Program-made: the position numbers and the translations under genes | The notes under the pieces: generated by a model | Told to the model about the DNA's origin: nothing | Databases searched by the model: none | Seen by the model: only the letters and a program-made list of their open reading frames with translations | Part shown: positions 1-40,155 of the stretch, one piece after another | Position numbering within the stretch: position 1 is the first letter of the stretch | Layout of the letters: every line of letters begins with the position of its first letter | IMG/VR virus record: IMGVR_UViG_3300005573_001166 | Coordinates: 1 to 64,000 of that record | DNA length: 64,000 nt | Direction: 5' to 3' (one strand) | From: a virus

Positions 1-150
1 AGGGAGTTGAAACAACATTTTGGATTTGGTGATTATCAAAGCACAACTCCGCTTTCTATAATTAGATTTGTTAATCTTTCTTGTATATCATTATGTTTGT
101 GTAGTTTGATGTTATTTCAACCTGTACTCTGCCAACGTCAGTATTAGAAT

Positions 151-166
151 GGGGGCGTAAGCCCCC
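151..166. terminator. GC-rich hairpin GGGGGC-GTAA-GCCCCC (terminator or processing site)
   Basis: Perfect 6-bp stem just past the stop of the minus-strand ORF 174-299. A sister hairpin at 655-675 has the same GTATTAGAAT flank. Confidence 0.45.
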
Positions 167-173
167 TAATGTT

Positions 174-299
174 TCACCTCCTCTTTTTTTTGGGGGGCCA
201 ATAAACCCGGCCCTTTGTGTCTATTTGGACACCCCTTTCCAGCAGGGCGTCCAGTGATACCATTTGTATTGCCGGTTTTGTCTTTTTTCGTACTCTCAT
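174..299 (-). CDS. small basic hypothetical protein, 41 aa (MRVRKKTKPAIQMVSLDALLERGVQIDTKGRVYWPPKKKRR)
   Basis: Translated by hand; below the ORF-track cutoff. GGAGG SD upstream of the ATG at 299. Confidence 0.6.
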   Translation of the reverse strand: MRVRKKTKPAIQMVSLDALLERGVQIDTKGRVYWPPKKKRR

Positions 300-316
300 T
301 TATAATCCTCCTTTTT

Positions 317-511
317 TTAGATTTGCTCCCTCAGGTGACGAGGGAGCTTTCTCTTTAGCTCCATGTACAGGGGGATATCCCCCTTTCTAAGAGCCCTTAG
401 CGCCTCCTTAGCTGCCTTCTTGGCTGCCTCCTTATCGGCAGCCAAGTACTTCTCCTCTGACACTATACCCGACTTGTACATATAACTTCCTAGCTTCATT
501 TTCTCTTTCAT
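317..511 (-). CDS. small hypothetical protein
   Basis: ORF with GGAGG SD embedded in the repeated leader. Confidence 0.7.
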   Translation of the reverse strand: MKEKMKLGSYMYKSGIVSEEKYLAADKEAAKKAAKEALRALRKGDIPLYMELKRKLPRHLREQI

Positions 512-583
512 TTTTAAAATCCTCCTTTGGCTTTCTACTAAAAAAGGAAAGGAAGCCGAAAGCCAAAAGCTTCTTTTTCCTAC
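512..583 (-). promoter_or_regulatory. repeated structured 5' leader, copy 1 of 4
   Basis: Minus strand GTAGGAAAAAGAAGC-TTTTGGCTTTCG-GCTTCCTTTCCT...GAAAGCCAAAGGAGG. Near-identical copies at 861-929, 1152-1224 and 2652-2724. Confidence 0.85.
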
Positions 584-585
584 TT

Positions 586-651
586 ACAGGCTTGCCTGCC
601 TCCAGAGAGGCTTACACCGGCGCCGCAAGCAAGCCTGTTAAATGCCGGTAT
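586..651 (-). ncRNA. putative pseudoknotted RNA motif, copy 1
   Basis: Interleaved pairings ATACCGGC/GCCGGTGT and ACAGGCTTGC/GCAAGCCTGT, plus a GCCTC/GAGGC hairpin. Covaries with the copy at 1241-1307. Confidence 0.55.
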
Positions 652-654
652 TAG

Positions 655-675
655 AATGGGGGCTTACGCCCCATT
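655..675. terminator. GC-rich hairpin (GGGGC-GTAA-GCCCC on minus strand)
   Basis: Directly follows the stop of ORF 678-860; homologous to 151-166. Confidence 0.45.
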
Positions 676-677
676 GT

Positions 678-860
678 TTAGTCTTCAAGTTTGATTGTGA
701 TTGTGATCTCACTATCGTTTAACGTAATACTGTTTACTAGAGTTTTTTCCTTCTCGATCTCCTCTAGTTCAGAGGGGCTCAATAATAAAAAGAACTCGTG
801 CGTCTTTGGTCGGTCTTCGCACTTGTAGCAGTAGTAGTGATCACACAAAAATGATATCAT
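678..860 (-). CDS. small CxxC/His protein, paralog of 954-1151
   Basis: CYKCEDRPKTH...LSPSELE aligns with CTSCEHREKEH...LSRSELE. SD present. Confidence 0.75.
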   Translation of the reverse strand: MISFLCDHYYCYKCEDRPKTHEFFLLLSPSELEEIEKEKTLVNSITLNDSEITITIKLED

Positions 861-929
861 TTCAATCCTCCTTTTGGCTTTCTGTAAGTTTAGAAAAGAA
901 GCCGAAAGCCAAAAGCTTCTTTTCCTACT
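861..929 (-). promoter_or_regulatory. repeated structured 5' leader, copy 2
   Basis: Stem GAAAAGAAGC/GCTTCTTTTC. The CTTTTGGCTTTC segment is complementary to GAAAGCCAAAAG, which abuts the SD. Confidence 0.85.
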
Positions 930-953
930 AGCAAGCTGGTTGAAATGTTTGTG

Positions 954-1151
954 TTAACGGTTTACTGTTTTTAAATATGCAACAACAGTAGCTTCATTAA
1001 TTATAAACGTATCCTGATAGTATACAGGGATACGTTTTTTAAGCCTCTCTAGCTCAGAGCGGCTTAATGTTATTGTGAGTTTATGTTCTTTCTCCCGATG
1101 TTCGCAAGAGGTGCAAACACCTTCATTGAAATGTTTCAAAAACACTTTCAT
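954..1151 (-). CDS. small CxxC/His protein, paralog of 678-860
   Basis: Shared CxxCE-x-R-x-K-x-H and LSxSELE motifs. Confidence 0.75.
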   Translation of the reverse strand: MKVFLKHFNEGVCTSCEHREKEHKLTITLSRSELERLKKRIPVYYQDTFIINEATVVAYLKTVNR

Positions 1152-1224
1152 TTTAAAATCCTCCTTTTTGGCTTTCTAAACGAGTTTAGGAAAAGAAGCC
1201 GAAAAGCCAAAAGCTTCTTTTTCC
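1152..1224 (-). promoter_or_regulatory. repeated structured 5' leader, copy 3
   Basis: Same stem, loop and SD arrangement as copies 1 and 2. Confidence 0.85.
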
Positions 1225-1240
1225 CGCTACATCTTTTTAT

Positions 1241-1307
1241 ACAGGCTTGCCCTCCTTTTTGCAGAGGGCTTATGCCGACACCTTCAGCAAGCCTGCAATG
1301 CCGGCAT
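1241..1307 (-). ncRNA. putative pseudoknotted RNA motif, copy 2
   Basis: Pairings ATGCCGGCA/TGTCGGCAT, GCAGGCTT/AAGCCTGT and GCCCTCT/GGAGGGC. Begins immediately after the TAA of the DHH gene. Confidence 0.55.
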
Positions 1308-2114
1308 TTAGTCGTTCAGAAATAAAAGGTCAGCCGATTGAAATCCAGCTGCTCCTTTGTGGCCGCCTCCTCCATACTCGGCGGCTATACTCGATACATC
1401 GATGGCGTCAGAGTATATTGTTACTGTCCAATACCTTTTGTTGTTATCTGCAACCATTCTAAAGGTCATCCAGATAACAACGTCAGGTGCAAACTCCTTC
1501 ATAAACTCAGCCGATTTTATTAGGTCTGAGTTTACGGCAAGAGTTCTGTACCCACGCCATTCCAACAAAAAGCTGCGCTCTTTTAACACAGCTAACGATT
1601 GCTGCCTTATGTATTTGTAGATAGCAGCGCCTTTATCGATGATGGGTTGGCAGTCCTCGGATACTGTATTCCATATTTTTGACGTTGGGCTGGTGTCTTC
1701 TGCATGTATACCATAGGAGAAGTACATCGTACTATCTCCATACTGCCATGCCCATACATCCCTATCCCCTATTAGTTTGATGTACATAGGTACATCAGTA
1801 AAGGGGAACAGATATTCCCAAGTTAGCTCACACGCAGCTGTCCCCACCCGCCTTATGCCAGGAATGTGAGTGGGGAGGTTTTCTATAGCTGTCTTATGGT
1901 GGTCTATCCATATAACACACTCTTCCATTAGAGTAGTAAGCTGTTCCGGGGGAATAGCTATATCAAGAATGTATACTATATCTGCCCCCGTTCCATCGAT
2001 GGCAATATCACCGTGATGTAACGGGGCAAACTCTACATTTTTGTAGCAAGTGCCGACAAGATGGGCGCTTGCACGTCCATCCATGTCGTCGTGATATGCA
2101 ACCTTTACTTTCAT
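1308..2114 (-). CDS. DHH/DHHA1 family phosphoesterase
   Basis: YHDDMDG, ILD, IDHH and C-terminal GGGGHKGAAGF motifs. Confidence 0.9.
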   Translation of the reverse strand: MKVKVAYHDDMDGRASAHLVGTCYKNVEFAPLHHGDIAIDGTGADIVYILDIAIPPEQLTTLMEECVIWIDHHKTAIENLPTHIPGIRRVGTAACELTWEYLFPFTDVPMYIKLIGDRDVWAWQYGDSTMYFSYGIHAEDTSPTSKIWNTVSEDCQPIIDKGAAIYKYIRQQSLAVLKERSFLLEWRGYRTLAVNSDLIKSAEFMKEFAPDVVIWMTFRMVADNNKRYWTVTIYSDAIDVSSIAAEYGGGGHKGAAGFQSADLLFLND

Positions 2115-2126
2115 TTTTCACCACCC

Positions 2127-2651
2127 CTATGTGATGCTGCGGAGTTGCACAGCATCATTGTTTATGGTTAGTACGTATTTGTTACCGATAACAACTTCGT
2201 TATCGGTAACTTCTGTGCTGTCCGTAAACTTGATCGACTCAGGAAACGGCACTTTTCTAATCACATTTCCCTGAAGGTCTACTACCTCGGCTTTATGTAA
2301 CCGTACTACTACCCAATAGGTAGTAGTACGTACTACCAGCTCGCGACCCGCGTCGCCGCTGTAGTAGATCTGTTTTACATTATCCTCCACTCTGTAAATA
2401 ATGAGGGATACCGCGGAGGATAATGTAAGTGTTGCAAATTCTTCTGATACTGTTACAGACATGTCGTTTACCGGCACCCTTAGGCGCTCATGGTAAACAA
2501 CATGCCCGTTTGGCTTGTATACCGTGAAGTCCTTATCATACACTACAGCAACTAAGCCGCATATAAGGGTAGCTAAGTCGCCGTAAAAGCTGTTGACGAG
2601 GATGCCCTCTTGGTATAGAAATATTCTATTCTCTTTCTGTTCTAGCTTCAT
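2127..2651 (-). CDS. hypothetical beta-rich protein
   Basis: Start placed at ATG 2651, directly below the repeated leader and SD. Confidence 0.7.
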   Translation of the reverse strand: MKLEQKENRIFLYQEGILVNSFYGDLATLICGLVAVVYDKDFTVYKPNGHVVYHERLRVPVNDMSVTVSEEFATLTLSSAVSLIIYRVEDNVKQIYYSGDAGRELVVRTTTYWVVVRLHKAEVVDLQGNVIRKVPFPESIKFTDSTEVTDNEVVIGNKYVLTINNDAVQLRSIT

Positions 2652-2724
2652 TTTCAATCCTCCTTTTTTGGCTTTCTAATAAATAACTAGGAAAAAGCCG
2701 AAAGCCGAGAAGCTTCTTTCCTAC
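2652..2724 (-). promoter_or_regulatory. repeated structured 5' leader, copy 4, with a partial pseudoknot motif at 2727-2753
   Basis: Stem TAGGAAAGAAGC/GCTTTTTCCTA. Loop GGCTTTC is complementary to GAAAGCC before the SD. Confidence 0.8.
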
Positions 2725-2762
2725 TTACAGGCTTGCCTCCAGAGAGGCTTACAACTCCGTCC

Positions 2763-2827
2763 TTTTACTAAAAAAGATAATTATCCGGATAATCTCTTTA
2801 TCTGAGATAATACCCTTTTTAGTAAAA
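2763..2827. repeat. nested palindrome: 12-bp inverted repeat enclosing two TTATC/GATAA palindromes
   Basis: TTTTACTAAAAA (2763-2774) / TTTTTAGTAAAA (2816-2827); inner ATTATCCGGATAAT and TTATCTGAGATAA. Confidence 0.8.
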
Positions 2828-2878
2828 ATTGTTTTTTGTTATACTATCTCCACTAATTTCCACCCTACCGCACGCAAT

Positions 2879-3082
2879 CGACAAACAAAAACCTGCTGTA
2901 GAAAAAATCGACATATATATATTAGAGGGTATATTAGACCCGACACATATTAGAGGGCATAATTAGACCGACAAACAAAAAACTGCCGTAGAAAAAACCG
3001 ACATATATATTAGAGGGTATATTAGACCAACATATATTAGAGGGCATAATTAGACCGACACACATATTAGGGTACATATTAG
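2879..3082. repeat. about 90-bp tandem duplication with ATATTAG(AGGG) sub-repeats; candidate origin iterons
   Basis: Units 2879-2968 and 2969-3055 plus a partial third, in the non-coding point where transcription diverges. Confidence 0.8.
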
Positions 3083-3474
3083 GAGAGCCCTCACATCAGA
3101 CCGACAAAAACCTGCTATATTTAACATACTTACAACACAATTTCTTACAGATTTTTTACAAAAGGCGGTTTCAAGTATTACGATACGGGGTCTATTTAGC
3201 GCCCCAGACCCCTGTCTTTCTGGCAACAGATTTAGATATTCTCAGACAACCAAGCTTCGACTTTGGGCAGCCATATACAAAGCAAAACCTGCCGTAGAAA
3301 AAATCAACACTGGTATAAAAATTACGCAGCGGTAATAATCTTACTATAAAAAAATTTTACAGGGGAATGGGGATTTTGGTTTTGGGCAGCCGTATAATAA
3401 ATTCGAGACCGCCATAGAGGAGGCCAACATACGGTATAACAATACAGAGGAAGATCAACTACAGGAGGAGGGGC

Positions 3475-4023
3475 ATGTTTAGGGAATTAATATTTAGGGG
3501 ATTAATAGGCTTACGGGACGCAACGAGTGCCATTTTTTCAAGATTCAGGCAGGAGACGAGCTGGGAGCCTCAGGCACCTGGGAGCATAGAGGACTTGGAA
3601 CATTTTTTACAGCAGGCATACAGATGGAAACGGGACGCGGCACACGGGCTACTGGACAACATGCAAACGATACGCCACATGAACTGGCAACTGGAGACCG
3701 CCAACCGGATAGAGGGGGACTGCGACGACTTCGCCAAATACACCAGTTACATACTACACAGGATGGGCTACAGGGACATATACATAGCCAACATACTAAC
3801 GATGAGGCACGTAATAGTCATATACGGCACGGGGGAGGCATACAACGTATTTTCCAACCACATACACTACCCAATTAGGGCACAGGACCTGGACGACGCG
3901 ATACAGGAATACGCGGCAGCAAACGGCAAGCGTACAAACAGGCACGGATACTTGGTAGAGAGTGCATCAAGATACTTAAGGAGGGAGGGACTTGAGGACA
4001 GCCCTCGGGGAGAGAACACATGA
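3475..4023 (+). CDS. transglutaminase-like (papain-fold) cysteine protease domain protein
   Basis: GDCDDFA motif and downstream HVIVIY; strong SD. Confidence 0.65.
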   Translation: MFRELIFRGLIGLRDATSAIFSRFRQETSWEPQAPGSIEDLEHFLQQAYRWKRDAAHGLLDNMQTIRHMNWQLETANRIEGDCDDFAKYTSYILHRMGYRDIYIANILTMRHVIVIYGTGEAYNVFSNHIHYPIRAQDLDDAIQEYAAANGKRTNRHGYLVESASRYLRREGLEDSPRGENT

Positions 4024-13009: not shown

Positions 13010-13860
13010 TAATAGATTCCTCCTACCTAGCATATCGCTCCTATTTTGCATTAGCAGATGCGGAAGCAGAGCAGCATATGGTTCAAAGCTTTATAAGGAG
13101 TTTATGGACAACAGTATTTAGGTTTGAGATACAACAGGTTATATTAGCTTGGGATGGGGGGCATGTTTATAAGTCACAGCTATATGAAGGGTATAGACAG
13201 AAAGTTGACATTCTTACTCCATCCCAAAGGCAGGATTTCAAATCTCAATTTTCTTTATTGAAGGAGATACTTTCGGGTATAGGGTTGAAAAGTTGCATGC
13301 AGGACGGTGTAGAGGCAGACGATGTGATAGCTTTTTTATGTAGAAATAAACACATACCCACTAAAATTGGAGAGGGCTACGAGGTACAGTATCCTATTCT
13401 GATACTATCAAGCGACCATGATTTATATCCTTTACTTTCTAAAGACATTGCTATGCTTAAAGGCAAGGGCATACCTTATACAGAGGACTCTTTCCGAGAG
13501 GAATTTTCCGGGTTGAGTCCTGATAAATATCATATAATGCAGTCACTTATGGGATGTAGCAGTGATAAGGTGCCTGGAGTTAAGGGGGTAGGGGTAAAGC
13601 ATGCAATCAAGCTTATAAGCAGATATGGCAGCCTAGAAGAGTTAAGGAGTGCACCTAGAGTCGATAGGATAATATCTTTGGTGCAAGATAATTGGGAAAG
13701 TGTAGAGCTCAGTTATAAATTGGCGATTTTCCAGGAAGTTTCTCCAGTATTAGAGATAGGTGTTAAGGATTTGCCCCGTGTAAGAAGGCTTTTATACAAA
13801 CATCAGTTATATATGTTGTTAGACAATTGGAACAACATAGTGAAGTTATCTGTTTTGTGA
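12985..13860 (+). CDS. 5'-3' exonuclease / flap endonuclease (PolI N-terminal type)
   Basis: IIDSSYLAYRSYFA, AWDGG, EADDVIA, SSDHDL and SDKVPGVKGVG (H3TH). Confidence 0.92.
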   Translation: MPETFKTLIIDSSYLAYRSYFALADAEAEQHMVQSFIRSLWTTVFRFEIQQVILAWDGGHVYKSQLYEGYRQKVDILTPSQRQDFKSQFSLLKEILSGIGLKSCMQDGVEADDVIAFLCRNKHIPTKIGEGYEVQYPILILSSDHDLYPLLSKDIAMLKGKGIPYTEDSFREEFSGLSPDKYHIMQSLMGCSSDKVPGVKGVGVKHAIKLISRYGSLEELRSAPRVDRIISLVQDNWESVELSYKLAIFQEVSPVLEIGVKDLPRVRRLLYKHQLYMLLDNWNNIVKLSVL

Positions 13861-32884: not shown

Positions 32885-33952
32885 ATGGAAGAATTAGAAC
32901 GGGGCGATCTTGAGTCTAAAAAGAAGGATCTCGCTCTTATAGCCGACAAAATCAGGAAGGCTCAAAAAGATAGTGCTGTTGTCCTCATGCATGGAGATAA
33001 AGCTTTACTAGAATCTGTTGATTTTATATCGACAGGGTCTTGGGTATTAGATGATATACTAGGAGGCGGGATGCCTAGGGGTAGGATAGTAGAACTTTAC
33101 GGCTTAGAAGGAGGGGGCAAAACAAGTATTGCATTAAGTGTCATATCTCAGGCGCAAAAGAAGGGGTATTATTGTCATTATATAGATGCAGAAAATTCTT
33201 TTGTAGCTGAGTGGGCAAAAAATTTAGGAGTGAATCTTGATTTTTTACTTTTAAGCCAGCTTAACTGTACTCAGGATGTTTTTAACTTAATAGAGAATAG
33301 TATAGACTCTGGAGTCAATGTTGTTGTAGTAGACTCTTTAGCCGCATTGTCTCCTAGGGAAGAGTTGGAAGGTGAAGTAGGGGATTGGCATGTAGGTTTG
33401 CAAGCGCGTTTGGTAGGTCAGGGGCTGAGGAAGCTCTCTGATAAAGCGGGTAAAGCAGGTGCATTGATTATATTTATTAATCAAATAAGGCAGCAGGTAG
33501 GTGTAATGTTTGGTAATCCTGAAACGACTCCGGGGGGGAGGGCTCTTAAGTTTTTTTCCTCTGTTAGGTTGGATGTAAGGTCTAGAGGTCATTTAAAGGC
33601 AGAGAACGGTGCTGTGGTAGGTATTGTAGTTCATGCTACCGTTATCAAAAACAAGATTGCGATTCCTTTTAGGAAGGCTGAAATTGATTTCTACTTTAAT
33701 AGGGGTTTTGACAACGAGTCCAGTATGTTCGATTTAGCCCTAAGTAAGGGCGTCATAACGAGGCGAGGGAGCTATTACGTATTTCCTCTATTCGATAATG
33801 AAAATAGGCGCAAACAGGATTGGGTTCAACTGTTTAAAACAAATGCTGCAGCCCTTAAGTTACTTTACGATGAGATGGCTAAAAAGAAGGACGCAGGTGC
33901 TGTAGAGGTAAGCGGTGAGGTGGTTGAAGATGAAATTTCCGACGTACAGTGA
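32885..33952 (+). CDS. recA: RecA recombinase
   Basis: GGMPRGRIVELYG, GKT, IDAE, VVDSLAAL, INQIR and PETTPGGRALKF. Confidence 0.96.
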   Translation: MEELERGDLESKKKDLALIADKIRKAQKDSAVVLMHGDKALLESVDFISTGSWVLDDILGGGMPRGRIVELYGLEGGGKTSIALSVISQAQKKGYYCHYIDAENSFVAEWAKNLGVNLDFLLLSQLNCTQDVFNLIENSIDSGVNVVVVDSLAALSPREELEGEVGDWHVGLQARLVGQGLRKLSDKAGKAGALIIFINQIRQQVGVMFGNPETTPGGRALKFFSSVRLDVRSRGHLKAENGAVVGIVVHATVIKNKIAIPFRKAEIDFYFNRGFDNESSMFDLALSKGVITRRGSYYVFPLFDNENRRKQDWVQLFKTNAAALKLLYDEMAKKKDAGAVEVSGEVVEDEISDVQ

Positions 33953-39636: not shown

Positions 39637-40155
39637 ATGAAACCAGGTAGAGGCAAAGCTAAAGGGCGTTCTTTTGAAAACGAAGTAGCTAAACTGCTTA
39701 CAGAGTGGTCTGGGGTAACTTGGAAAAGGGTTCCTATGTCTGGAGGTTGGCATAAAGACATAATAACGGGAGATATATTTTGCAGTGCTGAGTATGAGAA
39801 GGGGTCTACCATAAGAGTGCCTATCTCTATAGAGATAAAGAAACAAGAATCCTTTAACATAATACACCTATTCAAAGAGACTACCGGATTGGTAGACAGT
39901 TGGTGGGAGCAAGCAACGACAGATGCCAAAAAAGCATCTAAAGTACCTGTAGTGATATTCTCAAAAAACTATTGCCCTGTATTTATAATAGCACCGACTA
40001 AATTACTCAACAGGATTTCAAATCTTTATAAAAAGAGAGGTCTTTTTGATAATCTATGTCAAATTCGGTGCTTTTTAAGGGGGGAGGCTGTTACTATTTT
40101 GTTGTTAGATGATTTTCTAGAGAAGGTTGAGTTTAAGGTTTTGTTACAGGTTTGA
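39637..40155 (+). CDS. Holliday junction resolvase, Hjc-like PD-(D/E)xK nuclease
   Basis: KGRSFENEVA, RVPMSGG, GDI and IEIK. Confidence 0.85.
   Translation: MKPGRGKAKGRSFENEVAKLLTEWSGVTWKRVPMSGGWHKDIITGDIFCSAEYEKGSTIRVPISIEIKKQESFNIIHLFKETTGLVDSWWEQATTDAKKASKVPVVIFSKNYCPVFIIAPTKLLNRISNLYKKRGLFDNLCQIRCFLRGEAVTILLLDDFLEKVEFKVLLQV

Follow-up and report, generated by a model that had tools for sequence, protein, structure and literature searches.

Why do several small genes of one phage carry nearly the same ~75 nucleotides (nt) directly before their start codons? The question is raised by the left end of IMG/VR record IMGVR_UViG_3300005573_001166, a linear phage contig of 159,386 bp, of which the first 64 kb, here called the window, were analyzed. 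An earlier note on this DNA had described four copies of a 5' leader, before the ATGs at 511, 860, 1151, and 2651, in which a hairpin loop is complementary to bases next to the Shine-Dalgarno sequence (SD), and had read them as a translational pseudoknot or a two-state switch. The four leaders are there; they are co-oriented, lie on the minus strand, are ~75 nt long, and each has GGAGGA and an ATG at its 3' end. Our preferred answer to the question, to which we assign a probability of about one half, is that they are copies of a portable noncoding leader which would act in cis on translation initiation as an H-type pseudoknot and would also serve as a recombination joint.

From 5' to 3', each window copy consists of a purine-rich 5' arm of a stem, S1 (10 to 13 nt); a loop made up of L1 (4 or 5 pyrimidines), GGCUUUC (S2a), and one G; the pyrimidine-rich 3' arm of S1; an AU-rich spacer, L3 (10 to 13 nt); GAAAGCC (S2b); a run of 3 to 6 A's (the A-run); GGAGGA; 5 to 8 nt; and the ATG. 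In window coordinates, these parts are placed as follows.

509 to 581, minus strand: leader of a gene of 64 amino acids (aa); ATG at 511-509, S1 5' arm at 569-580, loop at 557-568, S1 3' arm at 546-556, L3 at 536-545, A-run at 526-528, SD at 520-525
558 to 564, minus strand: S2a (GGCUUUC), the 3' half of the loop in the copy at 511
529 to 535, minus strand: S2b (GAAAGCC), the complement of S2a in the copy at 511, 3 nt 5' of the SD
858 to 926, minus strand: leader of a 60-aa gene; ATG at 860-858, S1 at 915-925 and 893-902, S2a at 904-910, L3 at 883-892, S2b at 876-882, SD at 866-871
1149 to 1225, minus strand: leader of a 65-aa gene; ATG at 1151-1149, S1 at 1213-1225 and 1189-1199, S2a at 1201-1208 (with one extra U), L3 at 1177-1188, S2b at 1170-1176, SD at 1159-1164
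2649 to 2722, minus strand: leader of a 174-aa gene; ATG at 2651-2649, S1 at 2712-2721 and 2690-2698 (including a G-U pair), S2a at 2700-2706, L3 at 2677-2689, S2b at 2670-2676, SD at 2658-2663

The stem of roughly 10 bp that had been described as kept in all four copies has 9 to 11 pairs, commonly with one bulge, and closes a loop of 11 to 13 nt; the one-base bulge arises because the A-run and the U-run differ in length. GGCUUUC, which makes up the 3' half of the loop, is exactly complementary to the GAAAGCC that lies 3 to 6 A's upstream of GGAGG, and the match between loop and flank amounts to 12 bp in the copy at 860, 12 bp with one G-U in that at 511, ~8 bp at 1151, and 7 bp at 2651. The proposed loop pairing of 7 to 12 bp therefore stands for the four window copies, but its 12-bp extent is not conserved and only a 7-bp core is. 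Chance occurrences of the 22-nt hairpin core expected in the window number 0.00, and the genome-wide count that the earlier note had called for found just these four copies in the complete 159-kb genome, all of them in the window.

Relatives were traced via the DHH/DHHA1 phosphoesterase gene of the same gene block in a protein database and by a metagenome scan with a hairpin-plus-flank pattern. Mat metagenomes of Yellowstone hot springs are the source of the related contigs (Ga0078972 and Ga0068707 are such metagenomes [PMC8986864, PMC12324236]); the phage itself is uncultured and likewise of Yellowstone hot-spring origin. A protein-pattern search of IMG/VR for the DHH gene gave no matches, and exact-motif scans of IMG/VR and of species genomes gave only chance matches within coding regions. 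With same-phage duplicates excluded, there are 18 distinct copies of this leader family, F1, on six contigs, 14 of them beyond the window. Each of the 18 has a gene in the same orientation directly behind it and ends in an SD plus ATG, and the 18 downstream proteins make up about ten unrelated families, including WD40-like, ankyrin, and small Cys-rich proteins; the claim that the leader is common to otherwise unrelated genes is borne out, and its reading as a cis-acting, noncoding RNA leader is supported. F1 leaders before unrelated genes have a mean identity of 79%. The paralogous genes at 860 and 1151 have 51% nucleotide identity in their coding sequences and 78% in their leaders, and for the orthologues L053a and L060a the values are 55% and 83%. 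The leaders have thus outlasted the decay of the coding sequences and are not the product of recent duplication without constraint.

Seventeen of the 18 F1 copies could be parsed into the segments listed above. S2b is invariant in all 17 and S2a in 16, the copy at 1151 having its extra U. Length variation is confined to L1 (3 to 7 nt), L3 (10 to 15 nt), and the A-run (3 to 6 nt), and insertions and deletions fall only in what would be loop parts of a pseudoknot. The spacer had been said to vary freely; it falls instead into a few AU-rich types of 10 to 15 nt. Since the length changes are not multiples of three and shift the frame, the leader is noncoding and a coding reading of it was rejected, and no conserved upstream open reading frame (ORF) ending near the SD was found in the F1 copies. 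The spacing between the S1 arms varies by up to 5 nt, which led us to reject a DNA operator palindrome, and the spacing from loop to flank varies more. The G-U pair of the copy at 2651 is permitted on the sense strand only. In seven copies UCUC replaces UUUU in L1 and the flank is unchanged, and the lengths of the U-run and A-run show no correlation. These uncompensated changes and uncorrelated runs indicate that the 12-bp helix is not under selection, that the universal core is 7 bp, and that the two-state switch built on the longer helix is not supported. An extension of the stem by its flanks was seen in some folds and is not conserved.

Directly 5' of the stem, at window positions 1227-1232 (minus strand), there is an AUG with UAG or UAA as the very next codon. 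The same start-stop mini-ORF stands just upstream of the copies at L046 116 and 3139, L056 8848-8924, and L060 1774-1860; other copies have CUG or no start at this position.

Two more leader families, F2 and F3, occur in the relatives, with stems unrelated to that of F1 and a like layout. F2 has a 14-bp stem, a 14-nt loop ending in GCUCCUG, a U-rich spacer of ~8 to 14 nt, and CAGGAGC 8 or 9 nt before GGAGG. In F3, the stem is 12 bp long and the 13-nt loop contains CCCGGCA plus one G; next come a U-rich spacer of 15 or 16 nt and UGCCGGG (UGCCGG in one copy), with four A's before GGAGG. Over the two families, loops measure 12 to 14 nt with S2a toward the 3' end, and S2b stands 4 to 9 nt from GGAGG. 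Compared by position, the seven S2 pairs are Watson-Crick in all three families while the base identities change, and the exact 7-nt complement between loop and SD flank is present in 17 of 18 F1 copies, all F2 copies, and two of three F3 copies. The F2 stem is 100% paired over six copies, which include one double change from G-C to U-A and one change from G-C to G-U. Orthologues of a single gene of 104 to 125 aa follow F1 in L058 and L072, F2 in L046, L056, L070, and L071, and F3 in L053, L056, L060, and L074; the three families are therefore functionally interchangeable.

F2 and F3 were also recovered unprompted by a blind architecture scan, which required a stem of at least 9 pairs and a complement of at least 6 nt between the 3' part of the loop and the 0 to 9 nt before an SD. 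The genome yielded 8 matches to the scan, the reversed sequence 2, and 20 local shuffles 0.2 on average. For the complementarity observed, loop-shuffle nulls gave P values of 5e-4 (F1), 0.015 (F2), and 0.0026 (F3). The match at 40007-40102 was dismissed, as it lies within an ORF. Further single matches at G000 79577-79654 (minus strand, beyond the window) and at window positions 33010-33081 could be due to chance, and an intergenic dyad element around GTAATTAC (L046 8433-8585; G000 109378-109491) also scored.

A pseudoknot between hairpin loop and SD flank is the best structural reading of these leaders, judging from a geometry that is kept by three families unrelated in sequence and from insertions and deletions that spare its would-be helices; this part of the earlier proposal has gained support. 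In the fold that we propose, an S1 of 9 to 11 bp would be followed by L1 (3 to 7 nt), by S2, in which GGCUUUC would pair with GAAAGCC, by an L2 of 1 nt, and by an L3 of 10 to 15 AU-rich nt crossing back, and then by 3 to 6 A's, a long SD (AAGGAGG), and the AUG. An L1 of 3 to 7 nt, an S2 of 7 bp, an L2 of 1 nt, and an L3 of 10 to 15 nt over an S1 of 11 bp are what a classical H-type pseudoknot needs. If formed in vivo, S1 and S2 would lock the bases 5' of the ribosome-binding site (RBS) into a compact fold and leave the A-run, the SD, and the start codon open. In F1, the pyrimidine-rich 3' arm is similar to an anti-SD and the 5' arm to the A-run plus SD; in nested minimum-free-energy folds of several copies, the SD region is paired with the 3' arm or the U-rich spacer. 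Such capture of the SD region is a problem that an insulating fold would solve, and the proposed pseudoknot would prevent it. Any gene placed behind the leader would then receive the same open, strong start site, so that the effect on translation would be positive, whether the leader is described as an insulator or as an activator. At 37°C, the hairpins have predicted energies of −15 to −20 kcal/mol and the S2 duplexes of −9 to −13 kcal/mol; at 70°C the ranges are −5 to −8 and −3 to −7 kcal/mol. On these modeled values, the fold is plausible yet not rigid at the temperatures of the mats.

Several observations weigh against this reading. There is no covariation within F1, the changes in S1 being homopolymer slippage and a single change from G-C to G-U (in the copy at 2651), and, with S2 invariant, F1 alone cannot separate pairing from recognition of a specific sequence. 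The F1 copy at L056 8848-8924 lacks the 7-nt loop unit, and the F3 copy of L053 retains just 4 bp of S2. The stem is marginally stable at 65 to 75°C (−2 to −6 kcal/mol). A crude model of SD accessibility, in which S2 was treated as engaged by masking it, gave a freer SD in most F1 copies and a worse one in F2. Finally, most copies have a U-rich tract after the hairpin, which could make it a weak terminator as well and give it a secondary role as an attenuator.

The second part of the proposed role, that of a recombination joint, is suggested by where the phages differ from one another. In pairwise BLAST comparisons, homology blocks between the phages (the window, L046, L056, and L060) begin or end within ~10 nt of leader edges. 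The window and L046 are homologous from the leader at 2651, starting with its first base, up to a point 8 nt before the ATG at 1151; the genes beyond differ. With L060, homology extends across the divergent intergenic region to the right of the leader-bearing genes, stops 4 nt past the ATG at 2651, and resumes just past the stop codon of the gene at 860 to continue through the leader and gene at 511. Blocks shared by L046 and L056 are likewise bounded by leader edges. Before orthologous genes, the spacer or loop types differ between phages, which indicates that crossovers fall inside the leaders. With the same ~75 nt repeated in front of many genes, the leaders could act as homology patches through which accessory-gene cassettes would be swapped among related phages.

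Pseudoknots beside an RBS and repeated phage cassettes are both already known in kind, and the nearest examples help to place these leaders. In the rep leaders of IncI-alpha, IncB, and IncL-M plasmids (ColIb-P9 repZ and pMU720 repA), an activator pseudoknot is formed (PMC4705826; PMC8053102); in ColIb-P9 repZ, a hairpin loop pairs with the bases directly 5' of the SD, and the start site is kept unfolded (PMC4705826). Among known mechanisms, this activator pseudoknot is the closest. In both cases a loop is complementary to bases just 5' of the SD and would be a natural target for a competitor. However, the ColIb-P9 pairing is 4 bp, long range, and dependent on translation of a leader peptide, whereas here it would be 7 bp across a spacer of 10 to 15 nt; the ColIb-P9 type has a weak SD, a GUG start, and an opposing antisense RNA, whereas here a strong SD and an AUG are found in many copies per phage. 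Neither a leader peptide nor an antisense RNA was found for these leaders in a search confined to sequence. In the T4 gene 32 leader and in Escherichia coli rpsO/S15, too, a 5'-leader pseudoknot near the RBS governs access of the 30S subunit. Those operators are single copy and autoregulatory and are bound by the product of their own gene, whereas here one leader stands before many unrelated genes.

As cassettes, the leaders recall the promoter early stem-loops (PeSLs) of T4-like phages, repeated intergenic units of ~70 to 100 bp with a stem-loop and with an SD and start codon at the 3' end, which are found in variable regions next to orphan accessory genes and at which crossovers shuffle the cassettes (PMC2839356, PMC4122927). 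The stem-loop with SD and start codon at its 3' end, the repetition beside orphan genes, and the crossover points are shared. A PeSL, however, combines a sigma-70 consensus promoter with a GC-rich terminator stem-loop, whereas these leaders have no consistent −35 and −10 elements, an AU-rich stem, and a large conserved loop, and pairing of the loop with the SD flank is a feature of these leaders and not of PeSLs. Likewise, start-associated and extended start-associated sequences (SAS and ESAS) of Cluster K mycobacteriophages form an SD-containing motif just before many starts, half of the sites having a preceding inverted repeat at a variable spacer, and a role in translation is suspected (PMC3203893, PMC12699233). 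Their 13-nt consensus and 17-bp inverted repeats are not found here, and the host differs. The likeness is architectural only; no complementarity of loop to flank has been described for ESAS, whose sites stay with one gene family, whereas the leaders here are shuffled. Exonuclease-resistant RNAs (xrRNAs) of the luteo/tombusvirus type also contain a stem-loop, the apical loop of which pairs with a strand downstream in a short pseudoknot (PMC7668246). They belong to eukaryotic RNA viruses, and their tertiary core is conserved, whereas these leaders show no conserved core of that sort, which leaves a likeness at the level of secondary structure. No description of the leaders themselves was found in the databases searched (Rfam, cultured phages) or in the papers searched, and BLAST matched them to no cultured phage.

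Among other explanations, one that we consider unlikely, while giving it some weight, makes the leader a regulated operator or switch. The loop would be a handle for a trans-acting RNA-binding protein or antisense RNA that shuts off the leader-bearing early genes together, either by blocking the pseudoknot or by driving the alternative long helix. The invariance of loop core and flank over 17 F1 copies goes beyond what pairing needs, the alternative 12-bp helix is the minimum-free-energy fold in two of the four window copies (where it takes in 1 or 2 SD bases), a loop of this kind is the target of the antisense Inc RNA in ColIb-P9, and the genes resemble early accessory or antidefense genes, which phages often switch off. 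However, three unrelated sequences interchange before orthologues, which speaks against a single sequence-specific regulator as their shared function, and the extended helix is neither conserved nor compensated in the UCUC variants. A genome search for a second site complementary to the loop gave only one 10-mer inside a large ORF, and a promoter scan found no antisense promoter, although the absence of an antisense RNA is not provable from sequence. That scan also found no site common to the four leaders; candidate hexamers in the spacer are inconsistently spaced, and the invariant T is missing from their position 6. We rejected promoter readings, both of the sigma-70 type (within the spacer or immediately 5' of the stem) and of a T7-like type (at the ...UAGG junction), for their inconsistent hexamers, for a distance to the hairpin that varies by up to 17 nt, and because the conservation of S2 demands that hairpin and flank be on one RNA. 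It is improbable that the leader is a terminator-plus-RBS cassette, similar to a PeSL without the promoter, in which a U-tailed hairpin would mainly serve to weaken or terminate transcription arriving from upstream and to shield 3' ends, the loop/flank match being secondary. A U-rich tract does follow the stem directly in F2, F3, and most F1 copies, and PeSLs pair a terminator stem-loop with an SD and ATG and mediate similar cassette shuffling. After a gene of L070 (~13760-13830), moreover, there is a lone F2-like hairpin with a compensatory change from A-U to G-C and a U7 tail and with no complementary flank or SD; it resembles a simple terminator, and the F2 leader may have arisen from it. 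Against this, loops of 11 to 16 nt on AU-rich stems are atypical of intrinsic terminators (a GC-rich stem and a loop of 3 to 8 nt); a terminator scan called none of the leaders, the loops being too large; and spacer types b and c are poor in U. Sequence past the U-tract cannot affect the decision to terminate, and the fixed SD-side complement of the loop in three families would be left unexplained.

The similarity to plant-virus xrRNAs of the luteo/tombusvirus type, in which a stem-loop is joined to a loop-to-downstream pseudoknot (PMC7668246), would fit a 5' stabilizer, as would the position of the leader between a structured upstream element (element B, below) and the RBS. After endonucleolytic processing of a polycistronic RNA, perhaps in element B, the pseudoknot would block a 5'-to-3' exonuclease such as RNase J and yield a monocistronic mRNA that is stable and can be translated. 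We think this analogy very unlikely to be the explanation, since xrRNAs have a ring around the 5' end in addition to their conserved core, whereas L1 and L3 vary freely here, and a stabilizer has no need for S2b to abut the SD. A ligand riboswitch (for example, for preQ0 or preQ1) or an RNA thermometer, both raised in the earlier note, would surprise us. Small H-type pseudoknots beside an SD are typical of the preQ1 and SAM-II riboswitch classes, and the stem is marginally stable at hot-spring temperatures. The leaders nevertheless have no conserved unpaired pocket bases, L1 and L3 differ in length and sequence, the three families are interchangeable, and the leader-borne genes are unrelated to queuosine. 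Searched against Rfam, the 64-kb window had no match that reached the gathering score; over positions 1-3600 at E values up to 10 there was only noise, with nothing to preQ1-I/II/III, SAM-II, fluoride, pistol, twister, or RNA thermometers. As a thermometer, the leader would be expected to hold the SD in a helix, whereas the SD is in neither S1 nor S2 and only 1 or 2 of its bases reach the nonconserved extended helix of two copies. Recent DNA duplication without constraint, which the earlier note had named as an outcome that would undo its proposal, is barely credible. The genes at 860 and 1151 are paralogous, so at least one leader copy came from a tandem duplication; however, their coding sequences have diverged further than their leaders, about ten unrelated gene families on six contigs lie behind the leader, and the architecture recurs in two other sequence families.

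Returning to the cis-acting pseudoknot leader, we suggest tentatively a wider generalization: the leaders may belong to a sequence-independent class of RBS-side pseudoknot leaders, defined by structure, that has at least three interchangeable families and serves as a generic expression module for accessory or antidefense genes (in translation and perhaps mRNA stability) and as a set of recombination joints, the loops possibly being handles for shutoff. If the pseudoknot works in the way proposed above, the leader would be a compact plug-in ribosome-binding module of ~75 nt through which newly acquired genes are expressed at a set level and gain homology for swapping, and RNA control of translation would be joined with the modular evolution of phage accessory, probably antidefense, regions. 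The activator-pseudoknot type of ColIb-P9 would be widened from single plasmid genes to multicopy phage leaders. Three unrelated sequences with one geometry would also offer a clean natural experiment on what an RBS-side pseudoknot needs, as well as a candidate thermostable part for synthetic biology.

The leaders lie in a short leftward gene block (bases 1-2750, minus strand); every other gene of the window is rightward. The terminase of the phage has at most 28% identity to that of any cultured phage. The genes of the block are as follows.

317 to 511, minus strand: 64-aa gene behind a leader; its L060 orthologue (85% aa identity) is likewise behind an F1 leader
678 to 860, minus strand: 60-aa Cys-rich gene behind a leader, a paralogue of that at 954-1151
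954 to 1151, minus strand: 65-aa Cys-rich gene behind a leader
1308 to 2114, minus strand: DHH/DHHA1 phosphoesterase gene, with no leader of its own; its ATG is 12 nt past the stop codon of the 174-aa gene
2127 to 2651, minus strand: 174-aa gene, behind the first leader and opening the leftward block; its L046 orthologue is 80% identical

The 60- and 65-aa paralogues have a common CxxC...H...LSxSELE core (46% identity over 28 aa) and matched no Pfam or PHROG family. Homologues of the DHH phosphoesterase gene on other contigs are 91 to 94% identical, and their contexts also carry the leader. No tRNA or tRNA-like gene was found. The block begins at a divergent, repeat-rich intergenic region (2760-3470) that probably holds the control signals of both gene blocks. 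This iteron-like region is ~85% identical in a related phage (L060/L074) whose first leftward gene differs. Accessory genes in the relatives include one for a Csx3-like (PF09620) protein of 96 aa (L046 3788-4078; L072 2217-2507), and L046, L070, and L071 in general encode many ankyrin-repeat and WD40-like proteins. The leader-bearing block looks like an accessory or antidefense island.

The earlier note had also placed the leader directly after another pseudoknot motif, which we call element B. This holds for the leaders at 511 and 1151, which follow full copies; the copy before the leader at 2651 is truncated, and none precedes that at 860.

582 to 650, minus strand: element B, full, with helices P1, P2, and P3, of which P1 and P2 cross
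1226 to 1305, minus strand: element B, full; compared with 582-650, P1 is changed on both sides and P3 has a matched insertion
2723 to 2757, minus strand: element B, truncated to the P3 hairpin and the 3' strand of P2

P1 is CCGGC/GCCGG, P2 is a long-range helix of 9 bp, and the P3 hairpin lies between. Over eight copies, P1 shows a change from A-U to G-C with a G-U intermediate and P3 a matched C/G insertion, and in several copies P1 has been lost by deletion together with the 5' strand of P2. Element B looks like a real structured RNA. GC-rich hairpins lie just past stop codons on the minus strand of the window, at 640-675 and 140-175, each leading into a conserved UCUAAUACCGGCA stretch. In relatives (L060 571-655), this stretch is the loop of the F3 leader, and element B and F3 may therefore share ancestry.

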